64,000 nucleotides of DNA from contig CAYSEV010000002.1 in assembly GCA_964430295.1 (NCBI GenBank), positions 7,024 to 71,023 of the forward strand. Direction: 5' to 3'. Made by a program: the position numbers and the translations under genes. Below the pieces are notes generated by a model. It did no database searches. It was not told where the DNA came from and worked only from the letters and a program-made list of their open reading frames with translations. Source of the DNA: an uncultured Gammaproteobacteria bacterium. GTDB lineage: Bacteria; Patescibacteriota; Microgenomatia; UBA10105; UBA927. Positions 3,144 through 62,124 of the stretch are shown piece by piece. The number at the start of each line of letters is the position of its first letter. Within the stretch, counting starts at the first letter, position 1.

Positions 3144-4586
3144 ATGAAAGAAACAGATATACATGCTATTAAAAAGCGTTCATTAACGGGAATTATTGCG
3201 TTGACATCCCGTACATTTTTACTGCAAATTATCGCATTTGCTTCAACATTCCTCTTGACTGTATTTTTGAGCCCTTCGATATTTGGTGTATTTTATGTAG
3301 TATCTGCTATTATTTCTTTTCTTTCTTATTTTTCTGATGTCGGGCTTGCCGCTGCACTTATTCAGAAAAAAGAAACGTTAACAGACGAAGATTTGATTAC
3401 CACATTTACCATACAGCAGCTATTAGTATTTCCTGTGAGTTTGGTTGCACTATTATGTTCATCATATGTAGGTACCTTTTATAAACTGGATGCATCAGGC
3501 ATCGCACTATTTCAGTCTTTGGTTTTTTCATTCTTTATTTCATCATTAAAGACGATTCCTTCTGTCCTTTTGGAACGAGAATTACAGTTTAACAAATTGG
3601 TTATACCGCAGATTGCAGAAACCATAGGTTTTTATGGTGTGGCAGTCATCATGGCATGGAAGGGCTTTGGGCTTACCAGTTTTACCTGGGCAGTTGTGAC
3701 TCGGGCAGTCATTGGATTTGTACTTATGTATAGTATCTCTCCATGGAAAATACGACTTGGTATTTCAAAACCTGTAGCAAAACGACTTCTTAAATTTGGT
3801 ATACCGTTTCAGATGAATTCACTCCTTGCTCTGGTAAAGGATGATTTGATGACAGTATTTTTAGGAAAAGTTCTGACATTTGAGCAAATAGGATATATAG
3901 GGTGGGCAAAAAAATGGGCGGAAGTGCCTCTACGGCTTATTATGGACAGTGTTATTCGAGTTACTTTTCCTGCATTTTCCCGTCTACAGCATTCGAAAGA
4001 ACACTTAGGCAGTGCAATCGAAAAAACGCTGTTTGGACTATCTGTTGCGATGATGCCGATCTCTGTAGGTCTCTTATATTTTATAGAACCGGCGGTACGT
4101 TTGATACCAAAATATGGTAAATGGGAACCTGCTCTTTTGTCTTTCTATATATTTGTATTGACTGCACTTTTGGCAGGATTTTCTACACCGCTTACCAACG
4201 CGCTGAATGCGGTGGGAAAGATTAAAACCACTATGTTCCTTATGATTTTCTGGACTGTCGGGACGTGGGTATTTACGCTTCTGTTTATTCCTATATTTGG
4301 ATTTAACGGATTTGCTATTACTATGTTTATACTTTCGCTTGCATTATTTGCCGTTATAAAGCTTTCCAAGTCTATTGCGGATTTTTCGTTTATATCTCAG
4401 ATAAAATGGCCATTTATAGCATCGTTGTGTCAGTTGGTATGGTATCAGGTAGCACGGGGAACACAACCGTATTCAACACCAAGACTGGCAGTCGTTGCCA
4501 TATCCGGTGTTATACTATATGGAGCGATCTTGTGGCATTTCGAACGAAAACGGATTGCAGAAATTGTCACCATAGCCAGAACCTGA
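3144..4586 (+). CDS. Wzx-like polysaccharide/oligosaccharide flippase (MOP superfamily)
   Basis: 480 aa, about 12-14 predicted TM helices, hydrophobic throughout, typical Polysacc_synt architecture, placed directly after a polyprenol-P-sugar synthase. Confidence 0.6.
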   Translation: MKETDIHAIKKRSLTGIIALTSRTFLLQIIAFASTFLLTVFLSPSIFGVFYVVSAIISFLSYFSDVGLAAALIQKKETLTDEDLITTFTIQQLLVFPVSLVALLCSSYVGTFYKLDASGIALFQSLVFSFFISSLKTIPSVLLERELQFNKLVIPQIAETIGFYGVAVIMAWKGFGLTSFTWAVVTRAVIGFVLMYSISPWKIRLGISKPVAKRLLKFGIPFQMNSLLALVKDDLMTVFLGKVLTFEQIGYIGWAKKWAEVPLRLIMDSVIRVTFPAFSRLQHSKEHLGSAIEKTLFGLSVAMMPISVGLLYFIEPAVRLIPKYGKWEPALLSFYIFVLTALLAGFSTPLTNALNAVGKIKTTMFLMIFWTVGTWVFTLLFIPIFGFNGFAITMFILSLALFAVIKLSKSIADFSFISQIKWPFIASLCQLVWYQVARGTQPYSTPRLAVVAISGVILYGAILWHFERKRIAEIVTIART

Positions 4587-4593
4587 AAAACGT

Positions 4594-5505
4594 ATGAAAC
4601 AGACTCTTTCAGTTGTTGTCTCCGCATACAATGAAGCGCATACACTAGGTCGTTGTTTAGCTTCTGTCGCCTTTGCAGATGAAATTATTGTTGTTGATAA
4701 CGAGTCACTGGATGACACAGCAAAAGTTGCCAGAACATTCACCAAAAACGTATATAGGCAGAAAAATCTGCTCATGCTCAACACAAATAAAAATGTTGGT
4801 TTCTCTAAAGCCACATCAGATTGGATATTAAATCTGGATGCAGACGAAGTTGTCCCGGAATCACTTGCGAAGGAAATTATAAGGATCATACAAGAAAATC
4901 CTAAAGAAAATGGATTTTGGATAGCCAGACGCAATTTCTCATTTGGTAAATGGATACAGCATGGGCTATGGTGGCCGGATAAACAGTTACGGTTGTTTAG
5001 AAGAAATAAAGGATCGTTTCCGTGTATCCATATTCATGAATATATTTCCGTAGAGGGTGAGGTTGGTACCCTCACAGAAGCCTACGATCATTATAATTAT
5101 GAATCTATTCATCAGTATCTGACAAAAATCGATCGTGCTTCAACGAGTGAAGCATTATCACTCAAAGAATCAAACTACGCATTATCCTGGTTTGATGCCC
5201 TCCGATTTCCCGTTTCTGATTTCCTGAAAATTTATTTTGCCCAACGTGGATATAAAGATGGACTTCATGGATTGGTTCTTGCTCTATTTCAATCGTTTTA
5301 TTCGTTTGCGGTTTTTGCAAAATACTGGGAGATGAACGGCTTTACTAAACGTGATATTACACCCGGTGAAATCACAACAGAATTACAACATAATGCAAAA
5401 GAAATGCAGTATTGGCAACTTTCCATGGGTATTGATGAAGACAAAAGTAGTGTAGGAAAGCTTCATAAAAAAATACTTCGAAAATTCATAAAAACATCAG
5501 TATGA
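4594..5505 (+). CDS. GT2 glycosyltransferase (WaaE/KdtX-like subfamily)
   Basis: LSVVVSAYNEAHTLGRCLASVAFADEIIVVDNESLDDT...LDADE and C-terminal WIARRNFSFGKWIQHGLWWPDKQLRLFRR, shared with paralogs at 6400 and 33927. Confidence 0.7.
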   Translation: MKQTLSVVVSAYNEAHTLGRCLASVAFADEIIVVDNESLDDTAKVARTFTKNVYRQKNLLMLNTNKNVGFSKATSDWILNLDADEVVPESLAKEIIRIIQENPKENGFWIARRNFSFGKWIQHGLWWPDKQLRLFRRNKGSFPCIHIHEYISVEGEVGTLTEAYDHYNYESIHQYLTKIDRASTSEALSLKESNYALSWFDALRFPVSDFLKIYFAQRGYKDGLHGLVLALFQSFYSFAVFAKYWEMNGFTKRDITPGEITTELQHNAKEMQYWQLSMGIDEDKSSVGKLHKKILRKFIKTSV

Positions 5506-7194: not shown

Positions 7195-9524
7195 GAAATA
7201 TTGTTCAAAAGTATTGGCCAATTTTCGCAATAGGTATACTCTGGGTTGTGTTTAGTGCGTCGTATTTCATAAAGGGACTTGTGCCGTTTCCGTCATCATA
7301 TCTGATTTCCTCATTTCCTCCGTGGAATGCACATACAGGCGTTCCTGTAAAAAACAATGCAATGCCCGATATTATTTCTCAAATTTATCCGTGGAAAGTA
7401 TTGACGGTGGATTCCTGGAAAAAGGGTGTAATTCCGTTATGGAATCCATATAGTTTTGCCGGCACCGGTCATGCTGCAAATTATCAGACAGCTATTTTCT
7501 CTCCACTTACACTTTTATTTTTTGTTCTGCCGTTTATAGATGCATGGAGTCTCTTAATCTTGCTGCAACCGCTTGTCGCGGGACTTGGCATGTATCTGTT
7601 TCTTCGTGAAAGAAATTCTAGTGCACGGGTAGGGTCTTTTATCGGTGCAGTAGCATTTATGTTTTGCGGATTTATGGTCGGATGGATGGCGTATGGGACT
7701 CTTGGGTGGTCTGCAGCCATGTTACCATGGATATTATTTTTTATCTCCAGATACGTATCAAAACATATATGGTATGCACCAATTCTGGCGTCTCTTTCTA
7801 TAGCGGCTTCATTTGTATCAGGACATTTTCAGATCAGTGTATATGTCCTGGGACTTTCACTTCTGTATACAATATTTATATCAGTTCGCTATAAACGGAT
7901 TACTGATGGATTTATTTTGTTACTGTATATACTGTTCGGTCTTGCTATTGCTGCCCCACAACTGCTTTTGACGTATCATGCATATCAACAATCTGTTCGC
8001 AGTACGAGTTTTATAAAAGGTGAAGTGATTCCATGGAATTATATAGTCTCACTATTTGCTCCTGATTTTTATGGAAATCCCGTGACACGTAATGACTGGT
8101 TTGGTCATTATGCCGAATGGGCGTCATATATTGGAATCATTCCACTTATTCTGGCTCTATTATCTTTTGCATATAAGCGAACAAAAGAACAGTTGTTTTT
8201 TATGTGTGTCGCAATCATAACAATGATCCTGGCATATCAGTCACCTCTGAGTGACCTATTATTTTTCCTAAAAATCCCTGCGCTTTCTACGAGTGCAGCT
8301 TCCCGTATTTTGATTCTAACAAGCTTTTCATTATCGTTTTTAAGTGCTGTCGGATGGAGTCATATACAGGATATATGGGTTAGTAAAAACCGAAAATTAT
8401 TTTTTATATATAGTGCCTGCATACTATCAATTGTACTCATTATCTGGGGAATTGTTCTGGGACTTCGTCCGTTTGATATTGAAAAATTGTCTGTAGCAAA
8501 ACGTAATTTGGTTTTGCCAACTGGTCTCACTCTTCTGTCACTGATACTCATGGTTGCAGGGTTTATGAAGTCAAAGATGATGAAAAGTGTCGTCATTCTT
8601 CTGATACTTTTCGGAGTGGTATTTGATCTGTATAGATTCTCTTCTAAATGGATGCCATTTGAATCCAGATCGGATATATATCCGCCGGTTGCATCTTTAG
8701 AATATCTTCGCGCACATGCCGGACCTAACCGTGTATTCGGAAATATTGGCGGTGAAGTTGCATCCACTTTTGGTATTTCACTTATCGAAGGATATGATGC
8801 GATGTATCAGAAACGGTATGGAGAATTTATGCAGGCGGCATCAAAAAAACTTCCGCTTCCTCCTGAACGGTCTGTTGTTCAGTTCGATAAAAACGGAGTT
8901 CACAGAGATACCGTATTGCAACTTCTGGGTGTGAAATATATCTATCATCGGAAAAGTGATGGTCAGGCAGTCTGGGCATTTCCGTTTTGGGAATACGAAA
9001 AAGCGGGGAGTATGAAACAGGTGTATGCTGATGATGACTACTGGATTTACGAATATACCGATGCCTTCCCACGCGCATTTCTGGCGGGAAATTATGTGGT
9101 AAAACAATCGGACCGTGAACTTCTTTCAGAGCTTTTTTCCGACCGCGTGAACTTACGAGATACAGTCCTTTTGGAAGAAGAACCATCTGTAAAACCTCAA
9201 GAGGGAAGCGCATCGGCTGAAATCGTATCCTATACACCCAACCGTGTGGAAATAAAAACAACAGCAGATTCACCAAAATTACTTTTTCTTTCCGATACGT
9301 ATGACTCCGGTTGGAGTGCCCGGTTAGATGGTGTAAACCCTACTCGAATTTTTCGCGCAGATTATGACTTCCGGGCCGTTGAAGTGCCAGCCGGTGTTCA
9401 TACTGTCGAGTTTATATATAGACCATCATCTGTATTGTTCGGATTCTGGATTTCCATCGCATCACTCATTTCGATTATACTGAGTACTATCTCATCGTAT
9501 CTTTATGAACATCGGCATCGTTAG
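7191..9524 (+). CDS. YfhO family polytopic membrane glycosyltransferase (subfamily B)
   Basis: 777 aa. IYPWKVLTVDSWKKGVIPLWNPYSFAGTGHAANYQTAIFSPL near the N-terminus (conserved in 10559 and 24907). C-terminal SDTYDSGWSARLDGV...AGVHTVEFIY beta-sandwich motif. ATGA overlap with upstream gene. Confidence 0.75.
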   Translation: MRNIVQKYWPIFAIGILWVVFSASYFIKGLVPFPSSYLISSFPPWNAHTGVPVKNNAMPDIISQIYPWKVLTVDSWKKGVIPLWNPYSFAGTGHAANYQTAIFSPLTLLFFVLPFIDAWSLLILLQPLVAGLGMYLFLRERNSSARVGSFIGAVAFMFCGFMVGWMAYGTLGWSAAMLPWILFFISRYVSKHIWYAPILASLSIAASFVSGHFQISVYVLGLSLLYTIFISVRYKRITDGFILLLYILFGLAIAAPQLLLTYHAYQQSVRSTSFIKGEVIPWNYIVSLFAPDFYGNPVTRNDWFGHYAEWASYIGIIPLILALLSFAYKRTKEQLFFMCVAIITMILAYQSPLSDLLFFLKIPALSTSAASRILILTSFSLSFLSAVGWSHIQDIWVSKNRKLFFIYSACILSIVLIIWGIVLGLRPFDIEKLSVAKRNLVLPTGLTLLSLILMVAGFMKSKMMKSVVILLILFGVVFDLYRFSSKWMPFESRSDIYPPVASLEYLRAHAGPNRVFGNIGGEVASTFGISLIEGYDAMYQKRYGEFMQAASKKLPLPPERSVVQFDKNGVHRDTVLQLLGVKYIYHRKSDGQAVWAFPFWEYEKAGSMKQVYADDDYWIYEYTDAFPRAFLAGNYVVKQSDRELLSELFSDRVNLRDTVLLEEEPSVKPQEGSASAEIVSYTPNRVEIKTTADSPKLLFLSDTYDSGWSARLDGVNPTRIFRADYDFRAVEVPAGVHTVEFIYRPSSVLFGFWISIASLISIILSTISSYLYEHRHR

Positions 9525-10558: not shown

Positions 10559-12787
10559 ATGAAACGTTTAGACATGTCAGCCATAGGATTATTCATACTT
10601 CTTGCCGGCGTATTTTTTTATAAAACGCTGCTGTTTGGTCTTCTGCCAGTGCCGTCTGACGATTTGGTTGGCTTATATCATCCGTACAGAGACCTCAAAG
10701 CCGCAGAGTATCCAAACGGTATTCCGTATAAAAATTTTCTGATAACCGATCCTATACGTCAGCAGATCCCATGGAGAAAACAGGCGATTGATTCATTCAA
10801 AAAAGGAAAACTTCCGTTGTGGGATACCACATCATTTTCGGGCACACCGCTTTTGGCAAATATACAATCAGGTGCATTGTATCCGTTTAACATTCTGTTT
10901 TTTGTGTTGCCGTTTCAATCAGCATGGACAGTACTCGTCATATCACAAATCCTACTTTCCGGCATATGTATGTACATATTCTTACGTGTGCTTTCTTTGG
11001 ATGCGATGCCGGCACTTTTTGGATCGGTGCTCTTTTCATTTTCAGGAACCTCAATTGCATGGCTGACGTGGGGAACTATTGTGTCTACATGGATGTGGAC
11101 GCCGCTTGCCCTTGCAAGTATCCATTCACTTTTCTTACATGAAAAAAAACAAACGCGCTTATGGATACTCCTTGGCAGTATCGCAATTATCTGTTCATTT
11201 TTTGCGGGGCATTTGCAGATGTTTGTGTACAGCATGCTGACAGTCGGCGCCTATGCAATCTGGCTGTACCTGTCACACGATAAAAAACGGATCCACTCTT
11301 CATTGATCGGTATACTTTTGAGTTCTGTAACGGTTATTTCGTATCAGCTTATTGCCATATTACGATGGCTTCCGCAGACAGCCCGGGCAGTTGGGGGGAG
11401 TGCATGGCATGCTGAAGGCTTTTTTATACCAATTCAGCACTTAGTTCAGTTTGTTGCACCTGATTTTTTTGGAAATCCTGCAACACTTAATTATTGGGGT
11501 ACATGGAATTACGGAGAAATGGTCGGATATATCGGCATAGCTGGACTTCTTTTTGCCCTTATTGGTATATCAAAACGTACAGCATTTTGGGGATTTTTGA
11601 GCGCAGTAGCGCTGCTATTTGCAGTGCAGTCACCGATCAGTGCTCTTCCATACATATTGCATATTCCGTTTGTCTCAAGTCTTCAACCGACACGGCTTTT
11701 GGTAGTAGTAGATCTTGCACTCTGTATCCTTGCTGCGTGTGGTTTTTCTGATGTACTCATAAAAAGTAAAAAACATGTGCTTCCGTTTGTGTTTTTGGGT
11801 GTTGTGCTTGTTGGACTGTGGGGTGTATATGCACTTCATAGTTCACTTGGTATATCGCTTGAAAATGCGTTTGTGATAAAGCGAAATTTATATATGCCAA
11901 TGCTTTTATTTGGGCTAGCTATCGCTTTTTCGATACTGCTTAGGTTTATAAAAAAACATGAACTGCGAATGGCAGTGGGCCTTCTGATTATTGGTGTTGT
12001 TGTCGTAGATTTGTTTAGATTTGGATGGAAATTCACACCCTTTACTGATCAGGCATTATTTTTCCCACGCACAAAAGTTATATCCTATCTGGAAAGTGCG
12101 CCAAAACCATTTCGCATCATGACGTTGGATGACCGAATTCTTCCTCCGAACACAAATACATATTACGGCATCGAATCTGTAAACGGATATGATCCGATCC
12201 ATTCGCTTCGATATGATCAGTTTATAGCGGCAATGGAACGGGGAGAAGCAAATATTGCGCCTCCATATGGGTACGAGCGCATTATGGTTCCAAAAAATAC
12301 GAACTCTCCGTTATTTAACTTGTTAGGTGTACGGTATTTATTGTCATTCAACGAGCTTACAGATCCACGATTTAAAAAGGTACTGACAGAAGGGCAGACA
12401 CATGTGTATGAAAATACTGCAGTTCTCCCACGGGCGTATTTAGTGAGTCGCGTAATTCATAAACAAACGGATCAGGAAATTATAAATACGCTGTACAGTA
12501 AAGATTTTGATTACCGTTTTGATGCTGTAGTCGAACAGCCTGTGGATGTATTAAATACAGAACTTCAACCGGGAGAGTCTGCAACCATAACTCACTACGA
12601 TGCAAACAGCATGACCATCCAGGTCAAAACCACTCAACCAAGGCTCTTAGTCATCGGCAACATGTACAACCCTAACTGGAAGGCTATGATTAATTCGAAC
12701 TCTAAACCTTTAATTAGGGTGAATTATATCTTCTGCGGGTTATTAGTCGAGGAAGGTGATTCCAAAATATTGTTCACATATCATTAA
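10559..12787 (+). CDS. YfhO family polytopic membrane glycosyltransferase (subfamily B paralog)
   Basis: 742 aa. PIRQQIPWRKQAIDSFKKGKLPLWDTTSFSGTPLLANIQSGALYPF motif and C-terminal GNMYNPNWKAMINSN domain. Confidence 0.7.
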   Translation: MKRLDMSAIGLFILLAGVFFYKTLLFGLLPVPSDDLVGLYHPYRDLKAAEYPNGIPYKNFLITDPIRQQIPWRKQAIDSFKKGKLPLWDTTSFSGTPLLANIQSGALYPFNILFFVLPFQSAWTVLVISQILLSGICMYIFLRVLSLDAMPALFGSVLFSFSGTSIAWLTWGTIVSTWMWTPLALASIHSLFLHEKKQTRLWILLGSIAIICSFFAGHLQMFVYSMLTVGAYAIWLYLSHDKKRIHSSLIGILLSSVTVISYQLIAILRWLPQTARAVGGSAWHAEGFFIPIQHLVQFVAPDFFGNPATLNYWGTWNYGEMVGYIGIAGLLFALIGISKRTAFWGFLSAVALLFAVQSPISALPYILHIPFVSSLQPTRLLVVVDLALCILAACGFSDVLIKSKKHVLPFVFLGVVLVGLWGVYALHSSLGISLENAFVIKRNLYMPMLLFGLAIAFSILLRFIKKHELRMAVGLLIIGVVVVDLFRFGWKFTPFTDQALFFPRTKVISYLESAPKPFRIMTLDDRILPPNTNTYYGIESVNGYDPIHSLRYDQFIAAMERGEANIAPPYGYERIMVPKNTNSPLFNLLGVRYLLSFNELTDPRFKKVLTEGQTHVYENTAVLPRAYLVSRVIHKQTDQEIINTLYSKDFDYRFDAVVEQPVDVLNTELQPGESATITHYDANSMTIQVKTTQPRLLVIGNMYNPNWKAMINSNSKPLIRVNYIFCGLLVEEGDSKILFTYH

Positions 12788-12869
12788 TTTAATGTAATAA
12801 ACTATTTATAAGTGCGTCAGTTAATTGATATAGAAAATTTTGTTGCATTATTGATATATAATTAAATAT

Positions 12870-14474
12870 ATGGCCATAGCTCACCCCCAAACAAAAACGT
12901 TAAGTGAGTTGATTTCTAAAAAAAGATATGTCGTTCCTACATATCAGCGACCATATGCGTGGGAGTTAGATCAAGCATCGGAGCTATGGGAAGATATTAG
13001 AAATAATACTCCCTCATATTTTCTTGGCATATTAATATTGAGGCAAAAAAAAGATAGTGAATATGAAATAGTTGATGGGCAACAAAGATTAGCAACACTT
13101 ATATTATTATTACGAGCTGTTGTTGAAGTTTTTGGAGAGGGATCACAAGAAGGAATCGAGATACAAAATGGATATATCCATCAAAAAGGGCCACTTGAAA
13201 AAAATGCAGAGTTCACGCTGACATTAAGCAAAAGAGATAAGTTAAAATTCGAGGCGTTACTTACAGGCGGCGACTATATAGCTAAAAGGAAGTATGCGTC
13301 ATGGCAAAGATTGGAAAAAGTAAAAAAATTTTTTGTATCTAAACTTGAAGAATTAAAAAACACTGAGGGGGTTTCTGGCATAACTACATTTATATTAGAT
13401 CGGGTAATGAAATTAAATTTTATAGATGTTCAAGTTGAAAATGACAGCGATGTCTATTTGTTTTTTGAAACATTAAATGATCGTGGAATGGACTTATCGA
13501 TAGCAGATTTATTAAAAAATCGTATTTGCGCTTTATCATCTAATCCTATATTTCCTCCTGACGACGATGCAAAAAGAGTAGACGATATTACTGAACTATT
13601 AGGTGAAGGCTCAATTAAAAGCTTCTTGCTTCACTATTGTTGGGCATATTCAGATGAAAAAAATCCACCTCCCCGAAAAGCTCTTATGGATTGGTTTAAT
13701 AAAGTTATCAACATACAAAAGAATAGTTTTCTATCGAAATTAGAAGAAAATGCGCTAGCTTACTCATATTTAATTAAGCCAGACCAATTAAGAGGAAAAG
13801 AAAAAGAAGTGCTTGTAAATCTGAAAGTATTAGGTGCAACTAGATGCTATCCACTCTTACTGATAGGAAAACATATTCTGTCAGAATCCGATTTCATAAA
13901 ATTATGTAGAGCAGTTGAAATTCTAACCTTTAGACATAGTACAGTATGTAAAAAAGACTCAAAAATTCTAGAGTCTGTTTACTATGATCTTGCTAAGGAT
14001 CTTAAAAAAGGTGTTTCAATCGATAAAATTCTTGGAATATTAAATATACAAAGTAAGAAAATATCTGATGAAACTTTTTTAGCTTTATTTAATGAATATA
14101 TACCAGAGAATCATAAGGTAGCAAAATATGTATTATTGAAAATAGAAGATTCGTATAACGATGGTAAATCAACTCCCCCAGATAGAGAAAAAGCAACGTT
14201 GGAGCATATTTTAGCCCAAAAACTAGATTGGATAGATAAAGATGAATATGTCGAAAGATTAGGAAATCTGACTTTATTATCTGAGCCATTAAATAGAGAA
14301 GCTGGCATGAAAGAATTTATATACAAAAGGGATTACTACACAAAAGAAATTGGAATTCAAATAACATTAGAATTATTAAAATATTCTGATTTCACGGTAG
14401 AAACAATCAAAGAAAGGCAAAGTCTATTTGCAAAACATGCGATTAAAATTTGGAATCCAGATATTCTAAAATAA
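12870..14474 (+). CDS. GmrSD-family type IV (modification-dependent) restriction endonuclease, single chain DUF262 + DUF1524
   Basis: N-terminal DUF262 signatures YVVPTYQRPYAWE and VDGQQRLATL. C-terminal DUF1524 His-Me finger signatures ATLEHILAQK and LGNLTLLSEPLNREAG. The gene looks markedly more AT-rich than its neighbours by eye, with non-coding DNA on both sides. Confidence 0.75.
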   Translation: MAIAHPQTKTLSELISKKRYVVPTYQRPYAWELDQASELWEDIRNNTPSYFLGILILRQKKDSEYEIVDGQQRLATLILLLRAVVEVFGEGSQEGIEIQNGYIHQKGPLEKNAEFTLTLSKRDKLKFEALLTGGDYIAKRKYASWQRLEKVKKFFVSKLEELKNTEGVSGITTFILDRVMKLNFIDVQVENDSDVYLFFETLNDRGMDLSIADLLKNRICALSSNPIFPPDDDAKRVDDITELLGEGSIKSFLLHYCWAYSDEKNPPPRKALMDWFNKVINIQKNSFLSKLEENALAYSYLIKPDQLRGKEKEVLVNLKVLGATRCYPLLLIGKHILSESDFIKLCRAVEILTFRHSTVCKKDSKILESVYYDLAKDLKKGVSIDKILGILNIQSKKISDETFLALFNEYIPENHKVAKYVLLKIEDSYNDGKSTPPDREKATLEHILAQKLDWIDKDEYVERLGNLTLLSEPLNREAGMKEFIYKRDYYTKEIGIQITLELLKYSDFTVETIKERQSLFAKHAIKIWNPDILK

Positions 14475-14520
14475 AAATGCAAATTTAAATTCCTAAGGAA
14501 ATTTATTTGCCAGTAATAAG

Positions 14521-14612
14521 AGAATTAGAGTTTATAGGGCAATTCCTTTTTGAGTTTATACATGTGGTAGAAATACATGTATGATTTTGGATCGCCGTTG
14601 GTGTGTCTAAAA
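14521..14612. repeat. Copy 1 of a ~90 bp direct repeat; duplicated fragment of the 3' end of the minus-strand gene 15764..17089
   Basis: ctttttgagtttatacatgtggtagaaatacatgtatgattttggatcgccgttggtg matches 15783-15848 with roughly 85-90% identity by eye. Read on the minus strand it encodes ...PKSYMYFYHMYKLKK-like residues. Confidence 0.6.
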
Positions 14613-14624
14613 AGCAGTTGCCAT

Positions 14625-14656
14625 TATCAGCATCCAGTGCTGATATGTCTTTTTTT
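14625..14656 (+). terminator. Putative intrinsic terminator (8-bp stem TATCAGCA/TGCTGATA, 5-nt loop, then TGTC and a T7 run)
   Basis: Hairpin followed by tttttttg, about 150 nt downstream of the GmrSD-like gene. The stem is AT-rich, so predicted stability is modest. Confidence 0.35.
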
Positions 14657-14820
14657 GCAAATATTCTTTTTTATCTCAAGGCGCTTTATTAGAGCCTATA
14701 GTATAGACAATTAGGCATTTTTACTGTATAATTCTTGCACCAAATATTATGAAGTCCCATTAGCGGGGTTAACATTATATTTGTATAAAATAGCACGTTA
14801 AAATTGCGGAATTATTTAGT

Positions 14821-14856
14821 CAGCCTGTGAGAGCATGTTAGTGCTTTGACAGGCTG
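14821..14856. promoter_or_regulatory. 8-bp inverted repeat (CAGCCTGT n20 ACAGGCTG) overlapping a TTGACA -35-like hexamer about 50 nt upstream of the lipoprotein gene
   Basis: Seen directly in the sequence. No convincing TATAAT at the right spacing, so it could be an operator or a structural element. Confidence 0.2.
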
Positions 14857-14907
14857 GCTTAATTCACATTGGCGATTTGTTCAGAAAATTAAAAAACGGA
14901 GTAAATA

Positions 14908-15624
14908 ATGAAAATGCCCAAGATTGTTTATGTATTGATAGCACTTTCTGTTCTCATAGCAGGATGCGGTCCGGCAGCCGCCCCTGAAATGAAGCCTATC
15001 AAGATGCTCGATAATGAATTCGCGACTGGAGCTGTAACATTCCAACATACTCTCCAGACACCCGACGGCGATGTCATCATTGAAACAAGCTATTCGACGG
15101 AGTATGACACGTCACAATGGCACATCACCACCCCGAAGTCGTTGGATATCAAGGCAAAGGTCATAAGCGCGCCTGTTGGGAAAACCATCTATATTGAGAA
15201 CATGCACGCAGATGTTTCACTAATCTGTGAGTATGAAACTTTAAATGGATGGAAGACTGATACGATGGATGACCACCTCCACACTGGGACCGCTCCTGGT
15301 TTTTTGATCACCAAGGATTATCAGTATGAAGAGTCATTCGCGATTGAAGGATTTTCTCAGACTCTTTTAGATGGGTGGGCATACTATAATCATGCAATCG
15401 GTATTGGTTCAGCAACAGTTGAGGAGAAGCCTCTGACTGAATCTAATCTGATTAACGAATTGCATGCAAAGGGGCAGCGATTGACCTTCGTGTACGATAT
15501 TTTGGTTCAAAACACAGGAGATGCCGCTCCTCACAAACACGTATTCTCTGATGAGTTCGGTGTTCCCGTTACCACGGTCGGGGTTAATCCTCCAAACTCA
15601 ACACCCACTGCAGAACCGCAGTAA
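14908..15624 (+). CDS. Lipoprotein of unknown function (type II signal peptide, lipobox LIAGC)
   Basis: MKMPKIVYVLIALSVLIAGCGPAAAPE... Good GGAG Shine-Dalgarno 7 nt upstream. GC content visibly higher (roughly high 40s %) than the surrounding locus. No recognisable family motif. Confidence 0.6.
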   Translation: MKMPKIVYVLIALSVLIAGCGPAAAPEMKPIKMLDNEFATGAVTFQHTLQTPDGDVIIETSYSTEYDTSQWHITTPKSLDIKAKVISAPVGKTIYIENMHADVSLICEYETLNGWKTDTMDDHLHTGTAPGFLITKDYQYEESFAIEGFSQTLLDGWAYYNHAIGIGSATVEEKPLTESNLINELHAKGQRLTFVYDILVQNTGDAAPHKHVFSDEFGVPVTTVGVNPPNSTPTAEPQ

Positions 15625-15756
15625 AGACTACTTACATGCCAATGTGAATATTTCCCGCGGTTTTTTGTTCGTGCAAACGCACTCTCCGACCAGTAGAATG
15701 GTTATCTTTTAAAAGATGTAACGTGAGGGTGTTTTTGCTATTTGCAAGATTAAATA

Positions 15757-15848
15757 GTCTACCTTAGAGCTTATATGGTAAAGGCTTTTTGAGTTTATAC
15801 ATGTGGTAGAAGTACATGTATGATTTGGGGTCGCCATCGGCGAAGTTT
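15757..15848. repeat. Copy 2 of the ~90 bp direct repeat (the native 3' end of gene 15764..17089)
   Basis: See copy 1. This copy is in frame as the C-terminus ...GDPKSYMYFYHMYKLKKPLPYKL* of the minus-strand gene. Confidence 0.6.
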
Positions 15849-17089
15849 ATGTAGCGGCCAGCCTCTGCTTCCTGCTGTGCAAATATAAAATTCTTTTTGA
15901 ATTCCTGCTTATTATCGCTTCCCATAAACTGATAGTAATTTGCTACTGCAAAATATCCCCAAAACACGAGTAAACCGAGTCTGATAAGTGTATTTTTTCG
16001 CATCCACAGTTCGTTACTAAACCACGCAAGAATCATGATGGCTACATAGAGTGTAGATGAAAAATAATAATCAGTCAGTTCACCCTTATATGTGGAAAAT
16101 ACAAACCATGGGATTACAAACCACAGCGCGGTTACGAAGCATAGAAGCATTGTCTTTTTGCTTTTATCCTTACGAATGAGTGCTAAGAAAAATACAGGAA
16201 CATAGAAAAACATTGCCAGTTTCAGTTTCTCATATGGCACCTGCATAATTGACTGAAATTTTATAAATGCATCAGGTGCCAGTTGGAGAACTCTTCGTAT
16301 GTGAAATCCGTGATAATAGGTGGCAAAATATCCTGAGTAATTATTGACACTTTTTGCATGAGCAGCTTGTGAATAATAGACAATCTGCGGGACGAAAAAC
16401 AGGAAAAATATCACAAGTGAAATACCATAATATTTTAGGTGTTCTTTATCCCATTTTAAAAACGGAGATGTACACAGGACTATCATCGGGTAAAAAATCG
16501 CAGTGAAGTGAATATGAAAAAATAATCCCATGACAACTGCCAGATATATACTGTATTTTGGGTGATCGGTCAGAAGTTTATAGAGATAATAGAGAATCAA
16601 CACAGAAAACGCAGGTAGTAAATTAACAGGCCACTGTGAGCGCTCAGCACCTGTAATATATGCACAAAACGTATAAATCGCCGTGGCCCATACTCCGACC
16701 CATGGTGAAAAAAGTTTTTTCGTAACTGTATAAATAATCCCAAAGCTAAACAACGATGTGACGGCAGCAAGAATAGGTGCTGCTATCGGGTTCAAGTCTG
16801 TGATCTTATACACGATGGCAACCAGGTAATAATACAGAGGCCCTATATACATACCGCTATTTTGTTTGGCAACCATACCGACAAGCGGGTATTTATGTCC
16901 TATCAATATTTTTGCGGCAGCCCAGGCATTATCCACCTGGTCCCAGTTAAAAGATGCCCACTTTTCCAGGTTATAGAATCGGAAAAAGAGGTGTGCTAAA
17001 AAAATAAGCCCAAGAACTATCAGGTGCGCATATGAAGAGCGCTTCGGTATGTCGGGTTTTTCTATACTCTGTTTTCGTTTTCCTGCCAT
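15764..17089 (-). CDS. Polytopic membrane protein, GT-C (PMT_2/ArnT-like) glycosyltransferase
   Basis: 441 aa, about 11 TM helices. N-terminal cytoplasmic stub, then FRFYNLEKWASFNWDQVDNAWAAAKILIGHKYPLVGMVAKQNSGMYIGPLYYYL, reminiscent of GT39/GT83 first-loop region. Confidence 0.55.
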   Translation of the reverse strand: MAGKRKQSIEKPDIPKRSSYAHLIVLGLIFLAHLFFRFYNLEKWASFNWDQVDNAWAAAKILIGHKYPLVGMVAKQNSGMYIGPLYYYLVAIVYKITDLNPIAAPILAAVTSLFSFGIIYTVTKKLFSPWVGVWATAIYTFCAYITGAERSQWPVNLLPAFSVLILYYLYKLLTDHPKYSIYLAVVMGLFFHIHFTAIFYPMIVLCTSPFLKWDKEHLKYYGISLVIFFLFFVPQIVYYSQAAHAKSVNNYSGYFATYYHGFHIRRVLQLAPDAFIKFQSIMQVPYEKLKLAMFFYVPVFFLALIRKDKSKKTMLLCFVTALWFVIPWFVFSTYKGELTDYYFSSTLYVAIMILAWFSNELWMRKNTLIRLGLLVFWGYFAVANYYQFMGSDNKQEFKKNFIFAQQEAEAGRYINFADGDPKSYMYFYHMYKLKKPLPYKL

Positions 17090-17138
17090 ATGTGTATTTT
17101 ACTTTATTTTCATAGGTATTACATGAGATAATAGGTAC

Positions 17139-18065
17139 ATGAAGAAAACAAACTCCACTCTCACAGTCTCCATCGTCATCCCAAACTGGAACGGTGTATA
17201 CCTCATGGAAAAACATCTCCAGAAAGTTATAGATAACGCACCCGGTGCCGAGATCGTGGTCGCAGATGATATGTCTTCCGACGGGTCAGTCACCTATCTC
17301 AAAAAGAATTTTCCAAAGGTTGTTGTGGTAGAAAGAAACAAACGTGAAGGCTTTGCCGCAAATGTTAACGCGGGCGTTGCAAAAGCGACAGGGGATATCG
17401 TCATACTTCTGAACACCGATGTAGAACCGGAAAAGGGATTTTTAAAACCGCTCTTATCTCATTTTGAACATCCGGACATGTTTGCTGTCGGTTGTCTGGA
17501 AAAAAGCCCGGAGGCAAATGGGGTTGTTCTTCGTGGACGCGGGTTAGCCCGTTGGACCAAAGGATATTTTATACATAGCAAAGGTGAAGTAGATGAGGGT
17601 ACTACAACCGCATGGGTATCCGGTGGCAGCGGCGCGTTCAGAAGGTCTATGTGGGTAAAACTGGGAGGTATGGATGTCCTTTATAATCCATTTTATTGGG
17701 AAGATATTGATCTGTCATATCGTGCACGTAAAGCGGGATGGAATATCGTGTTTGAACCAAAAAGTGTAGTGAACCATTATCATGAGGAAGGTAAAATTAA
17801 ACGCGAATTTACCCCCACAGATGTTAAACGCATTGTATACCGTAACCAGTTTGTATTTATCTGGAAAAATGTGTCAAATGTATCTATTCTTCTGTCACAT
17901 ATATTTTGGACACCAATTCGGTTAGTGCAAGCCACAGTATCGGGAGACATGCTTATGGTTCAGGGATATATCCGTGCAATTGGTATGCTTCCACGTATAT
18001 GGGTAGCACGGAGTAATCAGTCGAAGTTATGGAAAAAGGACGATGCCAGCTTAGGTGTGGAGTAA
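17139..18065 (+). CDS. GT2 glycosyltransferase
   Basis: VSIVIPNWNGVYLMEKHLQKVIDNAPGAEIVVADDMSSDGS...ILLNTDVE GT-A signatures. Confidence 0.7.
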   Translation: MKKTNSTLTVSIVIPNWNGVYLMEKHLQKVIDNAPGAEIVVADDMSSDGSVTYLKKNFPKVVVVERNKREGFAANVNAGVAKATGDIVILLNTDVEPEKGFLKPLLSHFEHPDMFAVGCLEKSPEANGVVLRGRGLARWTKGYFIHSKGEVDEGTTTAWVSGGSGAFRRSMWVKLGGMDVLYNPFYWEDIDLSYRARKAGWNIVFEPKSVVNHYHEEGKIKREFTPTDVKRIVYRNQFVFIWKNVSNVSILLSHIFWTPIRLVQATVSGDMLMVQGYIRAIGMLPRIWVARSNQSKLWKKDDASLGVE

Positions 18066-54361: not shown

Positions 54362-55429
54362 ATGATCCCTCAACATATAAGCATCGTAATCGCAACATAT
54401 AATTCAGAGAAAACACTACCATTGGTTCTTGCCTCTATTAGAAATCAAACATATCCCAGAAAACATATAGAAATTGTAATAGTTGATGGAGGGTCTGTTG
54501 ATGCCACACTTCAAATTGCCCGACAATATAAATGCAAAATAATCCATAATCCAAATGTAGAACCGCTATACGCAAAATATCTTGGGTTTATTCATTCGAA
54601 AGGCAAATATATTGAGTATATTGATCATGATGAGGTTATTGTAAATGAAAATAGTATTCGTACCCGTATTCATATCTTTGAAAAATTTTCTGATGTAAAA
54701 GCCCTTACAGGTTGCGGCTATTATAGTCCAAGTGGATACCATATTATTAACAGTTATATAAGTGAATTTGGAGATCCCTTTTCCTTTTTTATGTATTCAT
54801 TAACAAAACATGCAGATTTTTTTATGTCGGTTATGAAATCCAGATATACAACGAGTCTGGATAATGATGAGTTTACGATATTTGATTTGAAGGGAAGTTC
54901 AGAAATGCCGCTTGTTGAGTTGGTAGCGGGTGGCGGGATGGTTGATCGTGCATATATGTTAAAAAATTTCCCGGAATTGAAAACAAAACAGTATCTTTTG
55001 CCGCATCTGTTATATCTGTTACTCCAAAAATCTACGATGTTGGCTATTACAAAACATGACCCGATAATACACTATTCTTCGGATACAATAAAAAGTTATA
55101 TGCATAAGCTTATATGGCGAATAAAAAATAATATATTTTTTAAAAAAACTACTGGAATTTCAGGATTTTCAGGTCGGATTGGCAGTAATACATTGAGAGT
55201 CAAATTACGTAAATTTTTATTTATTCCATACGCACTCAGTATTATTATTCCTTGTATAGATGCTATAAGGCTTATATTTTCCAGGAAAAATATCGGGTAT
55301 ATAATACACGTTCCGTTAACCTTTATAACTGCAGTGCTTATCATTTATTTTTCATTTTTAAAGCTATTTGGAATTCAGATGCAGCTTCAAAATTATGATG
55401 GAACCGTCAGAGCATATGAACATGCGTAA
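54362..55429 (+). CDS. GT2 glycosyltransferase with C-terminal membrane anchor (paralog of 45524)
   Basis: MIPQHISIVIATYNSEKTLPLVLASIRNQTYPRKHIEIVIVDGGSVDAT. C-terminal FIPYALSIIIPCIDAIRLIF helices parallel LFVPYAITIVAPTINSIYNAV in 45524. The listed TTG start at 54320 is less likely. Confidence 0.65.
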   Translation: MIPQHISIVIATYNSEKTLPLVLASIRNQTYPRKHIEIVIVDGGSVDATLQIARQYKCKIIHNPNVEPLYAKYLGFIHSKGKYIEYIDHDEVIVNENSIRTRIHIFEKFSDVKALTGCGYYSPSGYHIINSYISEFGDPFSFFMYSLTKHADFFMSVMKSRYTTSLDNDEFTIFDLKGSSEMPLVELVAGGGMVDRAYMLKNFPELKTKQYLLPHLLYLLLQKSTMLAITKHDPIIHYSSDTIKSYMHKLIWRIKNNIFFKKTTGISGFSGRIGSNTLRVKLRKFLFIPYALSIIIPCIDAIRLIFSRKNIGYIIHVPLTFITAVLIIYFSFLKLFGIQMQLQNYDGTVRAYEHA

Positions 55430-57671
55430 TTCCAACAAAATTTCATATAGTCAAATTATCGTATATCTTTGTGCTCTCGTGTTGTTCTTAATTCCTTTTT
55501 TTTGGTTTGAACCAGGGTATATAAATCTTGGTGGAGATGGCGGAAGACTTTATTTCTTGGATCCGTTGGCTGTTGCGAAAAGCGCTTTAAACTACACTAA
55601 TTCCGCCTATGGATATTCTTTTTCGTTCATCCCGTATCTTTATTTTTTGTATAGTATGCTTCAGGTTCTGCGGACACCAACAAATCTGATTGCCTTTGAA
55701 CACGGATTAAATTTATCTCTAAGCTTTTTATACATTGTCTTAATTCTCAGAGTATTTCTTTCAAACCATAAATATAAAAATCGTGTAATTATAAATGACT
55801 CTATAGGAATAACTGCGGGTGTTGCATATATTTCACTCATTACAAAAACCGGATGGCCTGTGGCGCTTCCGACACTAAATCAGATATTTTTAAACGTGAT
55901 GATTTTTTACCATATGCTTCAATATATACGCACATCGAAATTCAGACATCTAATTTCTATATGTCTTGTCACACTGGTGTTTTCAATTAATTTCGGATTG
56001 GGAAATGCGCCGCAATTGCTGTCTTTTTATCCGCTATCTCTGATATTTATTTATATCTATACGAGATATATAGAAAACATTCCGTTTCAATGGAAGAATA
56101 TATTTATACTGATACTAACGTTGGTGGGTATTCACAGTTTTCACATATTTCCAATTCTTATGTCTCTGTTTAATTCATCAAGCATAGTTCATTCTCAGGT
56201 CTTTAGCGAATCTGTGATAAAAAATGCGGGATTATTCTATTTTACTGAAAATCATGCGGCATCAGGAAAAATAAGCCGGGAATTATTTCAGTGGTGGCTT
56301 AGCAAAGATATATTGATTTATATCTTGCCTATCACAATCGTCGGCGGATTCTTATCCGGAAAATCAAAATTACTACTGTTACTTGGAAGCATGTTTTTGG
56401 GCACATTATTTCTAGTCTCTGCGAATATTACTGAAATAGGGGTGAAATTATATACATTATTTTTCTATATCCCGGGCTTTTCCATGTTTCGATCATTTAA
56501 TGAAAAGTGGTTTTATGTATTTGCATTTTATTATGTACTGTTATTTGGAATGTCACTGTATTATATGCTCAGAAGAAGACATATATGTTCTGTCATTTCC
56601 GTTTCGTTCATACTAACGTCATTGTTTATTTATCGATTGCTCCCATTTTTCAAAGGTGATGTTGTCCATTCCACGTTGTATATGTCCAATGGCGTATCAA
56701 GCGTTTTTACGGTTGATCCTGATTTAGTGGATAGTTTGTTATATGTTAAAAAACTTCCGAAAGACGGAAAAGTATTGACACTTCCGTTAACATTTCCATA
56801 CTTCCAAATATCGTATGGACAAAAGGGTGGTGCGTATGAAGGGATTTCGATGGTATCGAATATTGCCAACAGACAGGACTTTGCAGGGTTATGGTCATTC
56901 GGACCGTACGAGAAGCCAATGATAGAAGCCATACTATCAAAGGATTTTAATCAGATTAGACAGATACTTTCAATGCTCAATGTTCGATATATTTATAGGA
57001 ACTCTGATGACAGGGTTATGGACCGTTTTCCGAAATACCCATATGTGCCTATAAAAACATTTGAATCTAAAGATGATATACCCGCGATTAAAAATCAACG
57101 TGCATATGACGATTTTTTATCAGGTCTGCATGCAAAATTAATCTATCAAAAGGGGTTTTATAGCATATATGAACTCGATCAGCACATTGTTAGGCCACTT
57201 ATATATATTCCGGATTATATAAAAAGCACGGCAGATTACTCCGATACCAACTCGTTTTCATGGGCTTTTTTAGATACCCGTGATTGCAGAAAAATTTCAT
57301 GCGATGCGACAATATCCGGGATACCGAATATTTCATACACAAAAAAAAGTGAAACATTGTATGAAATTACCCTTGATATATCAAAACAAAAAAAACCGTT
57401 TCTTTTGGTGTTTACGCAGCCATATGTGTCTGATGTGCAGCTTTCACTGGATGAAAAAACGATTCAAAATACTTCAGATCATATTCTGGTGAATAATTAC
57501 GCTAACGGGTGGGTCATATATCCGGAAAAATATTCGTCAAATAAACGGTTGAAGGGTTTCATATACTTGCGTTCAATACGTAATGCATATATAGGAAGTA
57601 TTGTGTCCTTGATTTTTGTTTTTCTTGTACTGGCAGCATTTGTATTTTCGTACAAATATAAAAAATTATGA
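55416..57671 (+). CDS. Large polytopic membrane protein, unrecognised family (putative GT-C-like transferase or polymerase), paralog 1 of 3
   Basis: About 750 aa. N-terminal TM then FEPGYINLGGDGGRLYFLDP motif, many TM helices, then a large C-terminal soluble domain and a final TM anchor. The start is ambiguous (55395-55422). Confidence 0.5.
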   Translation: MNMRNSNKISYSQIIVYLCALVLFLIPFFWFEPGYINLGGDGGRLYFLDPLAVAKSALNYTNSAYGYSFSFIPYLYFLYSMLQVLRTPTNLIAFEHGLNLSLSFLYIVLILRVFLSNHKYKNRVIINDSIGITAGVAYISLITKTGWPVALPTLNQIFLNVMIFYHMLQYIRTSKFRHLISICLVTLVFSINFGLGNAPQLLSFYPLSLIFIYIYTRYIENIPFQWKNIFILILTLVGIHSFHIFPILMSLFNSSSIVHSQVFSESVIKNAGLFYFTENHAASGKISRELFQWWLSKDILIYILPITIVGGFLSGKSKLLLLLGSMFLGTLFLVSANITEIGVKLYTLFFYIPGFSMFRSFNEKWFYVFAFYYVLLFGMSLYYMLRRRHICSVISVSFILTSLFIYRLLPFFKGDVVHSTLYMSNGVSSVFTVDPDLVDSLLYVKKLPKDGKVLTLPLTFPYFQISYGQKGGAYEGISMVSNIANRQDFAGLWSFGPYEKPMIEAILSKDFNQIRQILSMLNVRYIYRNSDDRVMDRFPKYPYVPIKTFESKDDIPAIKNQRAYDDFLSGLHAKLIYQKGFYSIYELDQHIVRPLIYIPDYIKSTADYSDTNSFSWAFLDTRDCRKISCDATISGIPNISYTKKSETLYEITLDISKQKKPFLLVFTQPYVSDVQLSLDEKTIQNTSDHILVNNYANGWVIYPEKYSSNKRLKGFIYLRSIRNAYIGSIVSLIFVFLVLAAFVFSYKYKKL

Positions 57672-61152: not shown

Positions 61153-62124
61153 ATGAAGCGTATTGGAATGCATTTAGCGATTGTCATTATACTTTTACTA
61201 ATTGGTTCATGTATGTCTCTTATTTTCTACCGTGAAGTGCATTACACTGCTATACAGGTGTATGAACATAGAAATATTGAGAATGAAGGACCTCTTTTAA
61301 AAAATAGTACAATTCGTGGAGAAGTCACTTCTGTATATGACAATTTTGGTACAGTAAAAATTCGTGTTAACACATTTGGCAGATTCAATTATGACACGAT
61401 TCATTTCCGATTACGGGAAAAGGGGACACAGGAGTGGATTGTGAAGAATTCGTATGCAGTAGATACATTTAGAAATAAACTTCTATATGGTTTTGGCTTT
61501 CCTATATTCCGGAATTCGGCTGGTAAGACGTACGAATTTGAACTCACGTCCGATACTGGAACACCCGATAATTCGATAGGGTTTTATACAGGAAAGTATT
61601 CCTTGGCTACTCAGTATGTTTTTTCAAAAAATACATTAATGAATAACCCTGAAAAAATGCCCGTATTTTTGAAGACAAAGATAGTAAGCCTGATTTCGGA
61701 CCCGTTTGTCCTGTTATATTATGCGATTTTTCTGTTGCCTGCAGTACTATATTCGTGTTTATTCTTATGTAAAAACGCGATACACCTTTATGCTATAGAG
61801 TTTTTTTCATTTTTATATATGCTTATTGCGTACATGTTTATACCAATTGCCATATCTTGGGATACTATATTGTTTATTGTCTTTTCCGCAGTTTTTATAT
61901 TCGAAGCTCAGTCATATTTTGTAATAACAAATAAAAATCACGTTTCCCGTGGTTCTTTCATAGCCTCTCATATGTACCATTTACCAATGCTGCTTATAGG
62001 TATTATGCTTTGGAATGTTGCTATAAAGAATGATCTTGTAGCAAATCGGGCGGCAATAGGCGTTTTTTACCTTACTGTTTTATCGTTGATATTATCGTAT
62101 AAGGAAGTACTATATAACAAATAA
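61153..62124 (+). CDS. Membrane protein of unknown function (N-terminal TM, extracytoplasmic domain, C-terminal 5-6 TM bundle)
   Basis: 323 aa, translationally coupled to its neighbours. No recognisable motif. Confidence 0.45.
   Translation: MKRIGMHLAIVIILLLIGSCMSLIFYREVHYTAIQVYEHRNIENEGPLLKNSTIRGEVTSVYDNFGTVKIRVNTFGRFNYDTIHFRLREKGTQEWIVKNSYAVDTFRNKLLYGFGFPIFRNSAGKTYEFELTSDTGTPDNSIGFYTGKYSLATQYVFSKNTLMNNPEKMPVFLKTKIVSLISDPFVLLYYAIFLLPAVLYSCLFLCKNAIHLYAIEFFSFLYMLIAYMFIPIAISWDTILFIVFSAVFIFEAQSYFVITNKNHVSRGSFIASHMYHLPMLLIGIMLWNVAIKNDLVANRAAIGVFYLTVLSLILSYKEVLYNK

Follow-up and report, generated by a model that had tools for sequence, protein, structure and literature searches.

An orphan C-terminal gene tip as a recombination scar at a variable junction in a glycan-biosynthesis supercluster

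Dissociated C-terminal tips and the C-terminal displacement that produces them are known from the rhs and cdiA loci (PMC2935791; Poole et al. 2011, PMC3150448). At rhs, homologous recombination with circular intermediates displaces the incumbent tip at a conserved segment just upstream of it (Jackson et al. 2009, PMC2935791). At icd of E. coli K-12, with its prophage e14 and the fragment icdC, the functional gene ends in element-borne sequence, and most differences between the two ends are synonymous or conservative (PMC13626634). The locus described here lies in a 64,000-nt stretch of contig CAYSEV010000002.1 (assembly GCA_964430295.1, positions 7,024 to 71,023) from an uncultured bacterium that is placed in the Patescibacteriota by GTDB. 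This whole stretch is called the window, and all coordinates refer to it unless another locus is named. It contains an intact gene for a PMT_2 glycosyltransferase of the GT-C fold and, 1.1 kb downstream of the end of that gene (15764), an orphan copy of the end of such a gene. The orphan is a recombination scar of a known kind, a displaced gene end at an insertion hot spot, and not a new element. The reading favoured here, with moderate confidence, is that it is a dissociated GT-C C-terminal tip, left when laterally acquired DNA recombined into a variable spot between convergent genes.

The likeness to rhs and cdiA lies in the layout. An intact gene is followed downstream by a promoterless fragment with an alternative C-terminal end (14519-14661 in the window, possibly to 14681), tip and body differ in evolutionary history, and the fragments are frameshifted; on the favoured reading, a lateral tip would also here have displaced the incumbent and brought a linked gene. 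The window differs in that the gene encodes a GT-C glycosyltransferase and not a toxin, and in that its tips are short (~45 codons) and homologous (85% identity in the terminal block), whereas the tips of rhs and cdiA are unrelated toxin domains. The linked gene encodes a lipoprotein on the opposite strand and is not a cognate immunity gene, no more than ~20 nt of a "core" repeat is retained where the repeat of rhs and cdiA is long and near-identical, and there is one orphan and no array. As at icd, the 3' end of the gene is present twice around the inserted DNA, in the manner of an attachment site, and the gene would owe its integrity to element-borne sequence. In contrast, e14 is a 15-kb prophage that has its own site-specific recombination system and excises on SOS induction, whereas the insert in the window is 1.24 kb long and carries one cargo gene, with no recombinase found in the 64 kb.

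Other mechanisms that place repeats around inserted DNA resemble the locus in part. Integrase islands carry a recombinase, but no tyrosine or serine recombinase gene lies inside the segment; a core is present (41 of 42 positions), but its arms show no switch of origin across it. As in a transposon target-site duplication, direct repeats bracket the inserted segment. Target duplications made by transposition are short and exact, a few bases, whereas the repeats in the window are 79-143 nt long, 85% identical and different alleles, with no transposase and with no terminal inverted repeats at the ends of the insert. In homology-facilitated illegitimate recombination and in transformation mosaics, a conserved segment serves as anchor and foreign DNA is carried in, and recipient DNA is normally replaced or deleted in the process. 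Mosaic alleles of this kind are seen in the GT-C genes of the window and of two related loci (L005 and L009, introduced below), but the recipient tip in the window was kept in full and in register, so that a single crossover with a circle, or a donor in which the duplicated layout had already formed, fits better.

Two alleles of one gene end

Positions 14525-14603 (copy 1) and 15764-15842 (copy 2) are direct repeats that align over 79 nt without gaps, 67 positions being identical (84.8%, 12 mismatches), and have a start-to-start period of 1239 nt; an automated repeat search of the window scored the same pair as 77 nt at 86%. The ~90-bp direct repeat proposed in the initial annotation (14521-14612 and 15757-15848) is thus real, the ungapped repeat being narrower and the orphan, at ~143 nt, longer than was thought. 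Past the stop codon, ~25 nt more of weak similarity can be followed in both copies. The repeat contains a core of 42 nt (14546-14587 and 15785-15826) in which a single base differs (98% identity). A search that allowed up to three mismatches gave just two occurrences of this core in the window, and no match in any of 100 dinucleotide-preserving shuffles. The similarity is not of low complexity, nor is the repeat widely scattered, as had been considered at the outset: beyond the two copies in the window, it occurs in the loci fetched for comparison at true gene ends only, which rules out a generic dispersed repeat.

Translation and a profile match bear out the earlier assignment of copy 2 as the genuine C-terminal end of the minus-strand gene 15764-17089 (...ADGDPKSYMYFYHMYKLKKPLPYKL*) and of copy 1 as an orphan. 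The minus-strand translation of copy 1 (...TNGDPKSYMYFYHMYKLKKELPYKL*) has its stop codon in register with that of copy 2, and the two peptides, at first taken to be the same, are nearly alike, with P against E and D against N. The match to an nhmmer profile made from the gene ends of six orthologues covers 14519-14661 (E = 2.8e-29, envelope to 14681). This length corresponds to ~45 codons and a stop codon, with one frameshift, a 1-nt deletion. Upstream of the orphan reading frame, stop codons follow within a few codons, a start codon is absent and no open reading frame (ORF) is listed. The fragment, which lies between a GmrSD gene and the lipoprotein gene, 50 nt past the GmrSD stop codon, is therefore silent and degenerating. 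Upstream of the point that corresponds to GGAATTC in the intact gene, identity of the orphan to all orthologues is 0.34-0.37, equal to random. Two weak alternative alignments can be made upstream of 14661, one to the conserved SDNKQEF island at which body and tip of the GT-C gene meet and one to the resident "KKNFIFA" codons, and neither is significant. The core also contains an 8-bp inverted repeat, ATACATGT-N9-ACATGTAT, which exists because the conserved peptide Y-M-Y-x-Y-H-M-Y uses ACATGT twice; in the fold predicted for the 3' region of GmrSD it forms a hairpin of 11 pairs.

To place the two copies among their relatives, the loci L003, L004, L005-L008/L011, L009 and L010 were compared, whose full-length GT-C orthologues are 63-81% identical; no relative above 81% GT-C protein identity was found among 5.8 billion proteins or the GTDB species genomes. 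Homologues bear names such as Candidatus Gottesmanbacteria and Levybacteria, which suggests a bacterium of the Microgenomates group of the CPR; the title "uncultured Gammaproteobacteria bacterium" on the records of the closest relatives (L010, L011, L012 and L013) disagrees with their gene content and homologue names and looks like a placeholder or a taxonomic error. The GT-C tip consists of a variable block of ~20 codons after SDNKQEF and a terminal block of ~25 codons that is conserved across the family. In the resident gene the variable block, KKNFIFAQQEAEAGRYINF, is of an "IFAQQEAEAG" type that is common to L005 only, with eight exclusive shared states. The variable block of the orphan, (F)AKKDISALDADNGNCFLD, is of an "ISAL..A..G" type, in which S, L, A and G are shared with the type of L003, L010, L009 and L004 (ISALEAADGD), and in which there is no L005-type residue. 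As a whole the orphan allele has the form FAKKDISALDADNGN..ELPYKL. The later E of its KKELPYKL is that of L003, L010 and L009, where L004 has P; "KKPLPYKL" is found in L005, L004 and most distant homologues, and "KKELPYKL" is a derived state of the L003/L009/L010 clade. Nucleotide identities agree with this typing: in the variable block they are 0.47 between orphan and resident, 0.50-0.55 between orphan and the other type and 0.80 between resident and L005, and in the terminal block the orphan is 0.88 identical to L003, 0.87 to L010, 0.85 to L009 and 0.85 to the resident copy.

The kind of difference points in the same direction. Of the 12 terminal-block mismatches that separate the copies, eight are third-position changes (p = 0.019), and the differences of the orphan are biased towards synonymous change with respect to every orthologue and to copy 2 (P = 3.6e-5 to 5.6e-3, where only ~17% of random changes would be synonymous), indicating that most of the divergence arose while both sequences were functional gene ends. 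Given this bias and the allelic difference, the suggestion of an event that copied the target gene end, in the manner of a long target-site duplication, is not supported. Changed residues are unevenly spread along the orphan: 13 of the 21 variable-block residues are affected, and 2 of the 24 terminal-block ones (Fisher p = 2.9e-4).

A variable junction and a recurrent breakpoint

In L003, 28 nt separate the convergent YfhO-family and GT-C genes, the gene end occurs once, and both GmrSD and the lipoprotein gene are absent. Compared with the relatives, the window has ~3 kb of extra DNA (12788-15763), made up of a GmrSD cassette, the orphan and the lipoprotein gene. The earlier view of a scar of insertion or recombination holds in that the repeat pair brackets the lipoprotein gene and its leader and that, in relatives without this gene (63-81% identity), the junction collapses to a single copy with no insert; what had been missed is the larger islet, in which GmrSD lies outside the repeats, between YfhO and the orphan. 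The same junction holds a 62-aa ORF in L004 and L009, a 159-aa ORF in L010 and another membrane-protein gene in L005, and the YfhO/GT-C junction is a spot that varies between lineages and has been hit repeatedly. The small ORFs of L004 (10606-10794) and L009 (~10801-10971) are 46% identical over 57 aa and have no Pfam match. Comparison of left-flank with right-flank genes shows no clear discontinuity and gives no sign of a large-scale recombination boundary at the spot.

L010, on an 840-kb contig, looks like a second, older and more decayed case of the same anatomy. Its functional GT-C gene ends at 7335 and is followed by the 159-aa ORF on the other strand (insert 7332-7954), which has no Pfam match. 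At ~7865-7927 lies a decayed copy of the gene end, TCAAACAAGCATTGCCTT--AAGCTATAA, and then come the ancestral spacer, as judged by L003, and the YfhO stop codon. This relic has an nhmmer E of 0.0025 when intergenic gaps only are searched and of 0.1 over all loci, and its local alignment score of 40 compares with 23.5 +/- 4 for shuffles, one of 500 of which reaches 40. It lies on the side of the ancestral spacer, where the original end was, and the inserted DNA thus appears to have brought or recreated a working end.

The inner edge of the orphan coincides with a recurrent recombination breakpoint, which the initial annotation had not noticed. In nucleotide alignment, the window GT-C gene is L003/L010-like through GGAATTC (15899-15904, the EF of SDNKQEF) and L005-like immediately after, and the homology of the orphan starts at the same point as this switch. 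Of the informative protein sites as far as column 421, 31 side with L003/L010 and 7 with L005; from column 423, all 7 side with L005. The L009 gene has an independent switch in the same island (between columns 414 and 421), before which it is L004-like and after which it is L003-like. The L005 gene carries an L004-like block in columns 297-350. Block trees join the window to L005 in the tip (99.7% bootstrap) and to L003 and L010 in the mid-block (100%); they conflict among themselves and with the trees of the flanking genes, in which the window is sister to the L005 lineage (bootstrap 100% for PMT, 70% for GT2). These switches and conflicts indicate that the GT-C gene is mosaic in several lineages, with the island as a favoured crossover point. 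Tip and body are evolutionarily decoupled, as seen in the block-wise bootstraps and in the mismatch of body and tip in L009.

The mosaic genes of the relatives have features of their own. The GT-C gene of L009 (9375-10775) has an N-terminal extension and a body that groups with L004 (99% bootstrap), and its flanking genes are 81-93% identical to those of L003/L010; the mosaic gene of L005 lies at 3660-4985. A BLASTN alignment of 15738-15900 to L005 (4849-5008) continues 23 nt beyond the GT-C stop codon of that locus.

Genes of the junction and of the window

The features of the junction are collected in Table 1. The orthologue of the YfhO gene in L003, L004, L009 and L010 codes for 742 aa and is likewise convergent with GT-C.

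Table 1. Features at the YfhO/GT-C junction of the window
Feature	Position	Strand	Basis or remark
YfhO-family membrane glycosyltransferase-like gene, conserved left flank	10559..12787	+	Pfam PF09586
GmrSD / HEC-06 single-gene defence cassette	12851..14474	+	ORF 12870-14474 plus ~19 nt upstream
Orphan GT-C C-terminal tip, pseudogene	14519..14661	-	nhmmer, translation, allele typing
Orphan stop codon	14525-14527	-	In register with the resident stop codon
Orphan terminal block, well preserved (copy 1)	14525-14603	-	
Orphan variable block, diverged	14604-14661	-	Carries the 1-nt deletion
Terminator-like hairpin (9 pairs) and T-run, inside the orphan variable block	14625..14656	+	Terminator scan
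Possible decayed relic of the SDNKQEF island	14662-14681	-	nhmmer envelope to 14681
Sigma-70-like promoter (TAGACA-17-TATAAT), best in the region, upstream of the lipoprotein gene	14704..14732	+	11/12 consensus matches; consensus match only
Long near-perfect hairpin in the lipoprotein leader	14818..14858	+	RNA fold
Lipoprotein gene, cargo between the repeat copies	14908..15624	+	Lipobox
Short palindrome immediately past the resident stop codon	15738..15763	.	BLASTN to L005
Resident GT-C C-terminal tip, 44 codons and stop, "B type"	15764..15898	-	7/7 informative residues from column 423 as in L005
Conserved island AGCGATAATAAGCAGGAATTC (SDNKQEF), body/tip junction	15899..15919	-	Nucleotide alignment
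Intact GT-C fold (PMT_2) glycosyltransferase gene, 441 aa, conserved right flank	15764..17089	-	Pfam PF13231

The GmrSD protein combines GmrSD_N (DUF262, PF03235, 1.9e-36) and GmrSD_C (DUF1524, PF07510, 1.1e-19) in one chain and matches HEC-06 of PADLOC at E = 2.2e-93, so that by its domains it is a GmrSD type IV restriction or HEC-06 protein. The G+C content of the cassette is 31.7%, against 37.5% for the window, and no fetched relative has a GmrSD gene at the YfhO/GT-C spot. The closest homologue (72% aa identity; 114-1739 of locus L016) lies in an unrelated neighbourhood and is itself low in G+C for its host (31% against 41%). Nucleotide homology between the two spans exactly 12851-14474, which takes in the ORF with ~19 nt ahead of its start codon and closes at the stop codon, and there is no GT-C fragment at the end of the unit in L016; by these exact boundaries GmrSD behaves as a separate single-gene cassette, of which the orphan is not part. 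It looks like a mobile single-gene defence cassette with its own promoter. Neighbours of the gene in L016 are a DNA methylase and a Y1 (IS200/IS605-type) transposase. The terminator-like hairpin and T-run in the orphan are probably the terminator of the GmrSD transcript, and the predicted RNA fold of 14475-14670 has an energy of -50.7 kcal/mol (z = -3.8).

The lipoprotein gene has a G+C content of ~45%. Its product has a putative signal peptide and the lipobox cysteine that characterize bacterial lipoproteins, as read from its sequence: the lipobox LIAGC is at residues 16-20, and Cys20 is invariant in all six homologues. Pfam and PADLOC searches gave no match, and the family has only six members among 5.8 billion proteins. 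An AlphaFold2 model (pLDDT 75.8) is a beta-sandwich, for which a fold search gave no meaningful match in the PDB and only weak arrestin-like beta-sandwich matches (TM ~0.3). Residues E97, H100, D102, D118, D121, H125, E147, H209, D215 and E216 are invariant and include the motifs ENMHAD and MDDHLH; the placement of these His, Asp and Glu residues on the predicted beta-sandwich suggests a metal-binding or catalytic site. The hairpin in the leader sits ~50 nt upstream of the start codon, within a region (14738-14910) of predicted fold energy -49.3 kcal/mol (z = -4.6), and may be a regulatory element or a branch point of the assembly graph. An Rfam search of the repeat and the leader gave sub-threshold chance matches only, and no known RNA family or riboswitch was recognised there.

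The whole 64-kb window is a single, very large glycan-biosynthesis supercluster. It codes for at least 14 large polytopic proteins of PMT_2, YfhO, PTPS_related and GT87 type, together with GT2 and GT4 enzymes, two flippases, aminotransferases, epimerases and sugar-modifying enzymes; four large ORFs (55368-57671, 58924-61149, 61153-62124 and 62126-63886) have no Pfam match. The only non-glycan genes of the cluster, GmrSD and the lipoprotein gene, sit between YfhO and GT-C. The initial annotation was right that no integrase is recognisable: no integrase, transposase or recombinase Pfam domain turned up among the window ORFs of 120 aa or more, and the segment between the repeat copies codes for the lipoprotein alone, with no mobility gene. 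A search of the window for tRNA genes found none, which speaks against attachment of the tRNA/tmRNA type.

Origin of the orphan and its meaning

On the favoured reading, a cassette of ~1.24 kb (~14662-15898), carrying the lipoprotein gene with its promoter and leader, the palindrome and an alternative version of the last ~44 GT-C codons, would have recombined with the chromosome at the SDNKQEF island (15899-15919). The incoming tip would have been fused in frame to the resident body, leaving the GT-C gene intact, and the former tip would have been displaced to the far side of the cassette, where, without start codon or promoter, it would have been decaying, as the one frameshift suggests. The recombination would most likely have been of the RecA type, since no dedicated recombinase is encoded in the window and no allele switch occurs across the 42-nt core. 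A circle of ~1.24 kb with island, tip, palindrome and lipoprotein gene could have entered by a single crossover at the island; alternatively, a donor that already had the duplicated layout could have recombined by a double crossover with the island and the conserved terminal block as arms, which would also explain the uneven decay of the orphan. The GmrSD cassette would have arrived in an event of its own, entering the spacer that separates YfhO from the old tip, and part of the dead tip would now form the hairpin and T-run that probably end its transcription. We infer both the direction of the exchange, that is, which tip is the older, and the route by circle or double crossover.

Several observations weigh against this reading. 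The flanking genes and the tip both pair the window with L005, so that the resident tip may be native, and the switch at column 422 may partly reflect the L004-like block of L005 itself (columns 297-350). The variable block of the orphan is only 0.50-0.55 identical to any sampled allele, where ~0.8 would be expected of a native end, an expectation that rests on the 0.87 identity to L003/L010 of the gene body just upstream, and the uneven decay is not explained by a native end that simply decayed neutrally. In the terminal block, moreover, three states are exclusive to orphan and resident, against one at most for any other pair; this calls for later gene conversion or chance, and suggests gene conversion under either direction of exchange. 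No donor with the lipoprotein gene adjoining GT-C was found, the only lipoprotein homologue with useful context (L015) lying in a different neighbourhood and having no homology in its flanks. The L010 relic is only moderately significant, and a scan of 80 more distant metagenome loci with a hidden Markov model of the tip found no orphan tips, from which the phenomenon looks confined to this close group. Finally, the left junction (14475-14841) is present in the source assembly only, with no confirmation from an independent one.

Some of these points would be natural if the exchange had run in the opposite direction, which is possible though on the unlikely side. The L005-type tip and the lipoprotein gene would then be native, and the orphan would be the GT-C end of another lineage brought in with foreign DNA, most simply with GmrSD from a donor in which GmrSD lay just downstream of GT-C, followed by an illegitimate join to the left of the lipoprotein leader. 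The PMT, GT2 and tip trees (100%, 70% and 99.7%) would require no import of the resident tip, a variable block far from every sampled allele is what an unsampled foreign lineage would provide, and the derived "KKELPYKL" state, the recently functional look of the terminal block and the foreign composition of GmrSD, 50 nt from the orphan stop codon, all agree with such a source. However, the edge of the orphan would then fall at the island and at the start of an allele block by chance only, for which our own estimate is ~2% if breakpoints are uniform along the gene, and one event more is needed than for displacement. The GmrSD unit shared with L016 stops at its stop codon without a GT-C fragment, and the position of the L010 relic on the ancestral-spacer side corresponds to displacement. 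The idea that the resident end was copied in place when the lipoprotein gene was inserted, through a long target-site duplication, slippage or a tandem duplication, with subsequent drift of the spare, is improbable: the two direct copies flank one gene and stay in register down to the stop codon, the core is 98% identical and three states occur in both copies and in no other sampled orthologue, but the orphan differs from the resident in the type of its variable block (0.47 identity, no L005-type residues), the differences are synonymous-biased and not random, the orphan is at least as close to L003 and L010 (0.88 and 0.87) as to the resident (0.85), and 79-143 nt at 85% identity without inverted repeats or transposase are unlike a target duplication.

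Site-specific integration is quite improbable. The ~1.24-kb segment would be the remnant or satellite of an integrase element whose attachment site mimics the 3' end of the gene, as for e14 and phage 21 at icd or for tRNA and tmRNA islands, and the layout is indeed that of icd, e14 and icdC, with an intact gene that has a surrogate end, cargo and a C-terminal pseudogene (PMC13626634). The inverted repeat in the core and the repeated hits at this spot in relatives are also in its favour. Against these stand the lack of an integrase or recombinase domain in the 64 kb and a segment with a single gene that is not for mobility; the flanks of the core are of one allele type within each copy, which places the crossover outside the core, and the palindrome appears from the sequence to follow from a repeated peptide motif, [YH]-M-Y, coded by ACATGT. 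Very improbable is an assembly artefact, in which reads of two co-existing strains would have been misjoined to give the orphan and the left junction. Independent Logan contigs reproduce 14841-17603 (100% identical) but not the orphan, one of them (L002) breaks at 14841 inside the leader hairpin, and neither the exact GmrSD protein nor the small ORF across the orphan is on record in Logan assemblies. A chimera at the core would, however, run into the GT-C body, whereas in the actual sequence a frameshifted variable block follows, and beyond it AT-rich DNA that is unique; the orphan allele has no match in 5.8 billion proteins or in the fetched loci, and a comparable relic exists in L010 on its 840-kb contig.

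A more far-reaching version of displacement, decidedly unlikely as it stands, would make the last ~45 GT-C codons, in these small-genome and probably Microgenomates-group bacteria, a portable homology arm, with cassettes of tip and cargo that loop out as circles and re-insert at the SDNKQEF island of other genomes; the cargo could be the lipoprotein gene in the window and the 159-aa ORF in L010. If true, this would be an integrase-free cassette system that shuffles the tip of an enzyme and seeds accessory or defence genes into a surface-glycan supercluster. As a variant of this, the orphan could be the terminator and 3' untranslated region of the GmrSD mRNA, 85% complementary to the end of the GT-C mRNA, and this complementarity, if true, would couple both genes by antisense pairing.

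On the favoured reading, displacement of a GT-C tip at a variable junction, the orphan would be a datable trace that horizontal gene flow has left in an uncultured lineage with few recognisable mobile elements. Two accessory genes, one for a type IV restriction-like defence protein and one for a rare lipoprotein, would have entered a glycosylation supercluster at one convergent-gene junction, and the neighbouring glycosyltransferase gene would have been kept intact by a swap to a ready-made end. The pattern of C-terminal displacement known from toxin genes, and from a prophage at icd, would thereby be extended to a housekeeping-type membrane glycosyltransferase without a recombinase. Fragments of this kind should be annotated as pseudogene tips and not as repeats, and may serve as markers for recombination hot spots and mosaic alleles in glycan loci.

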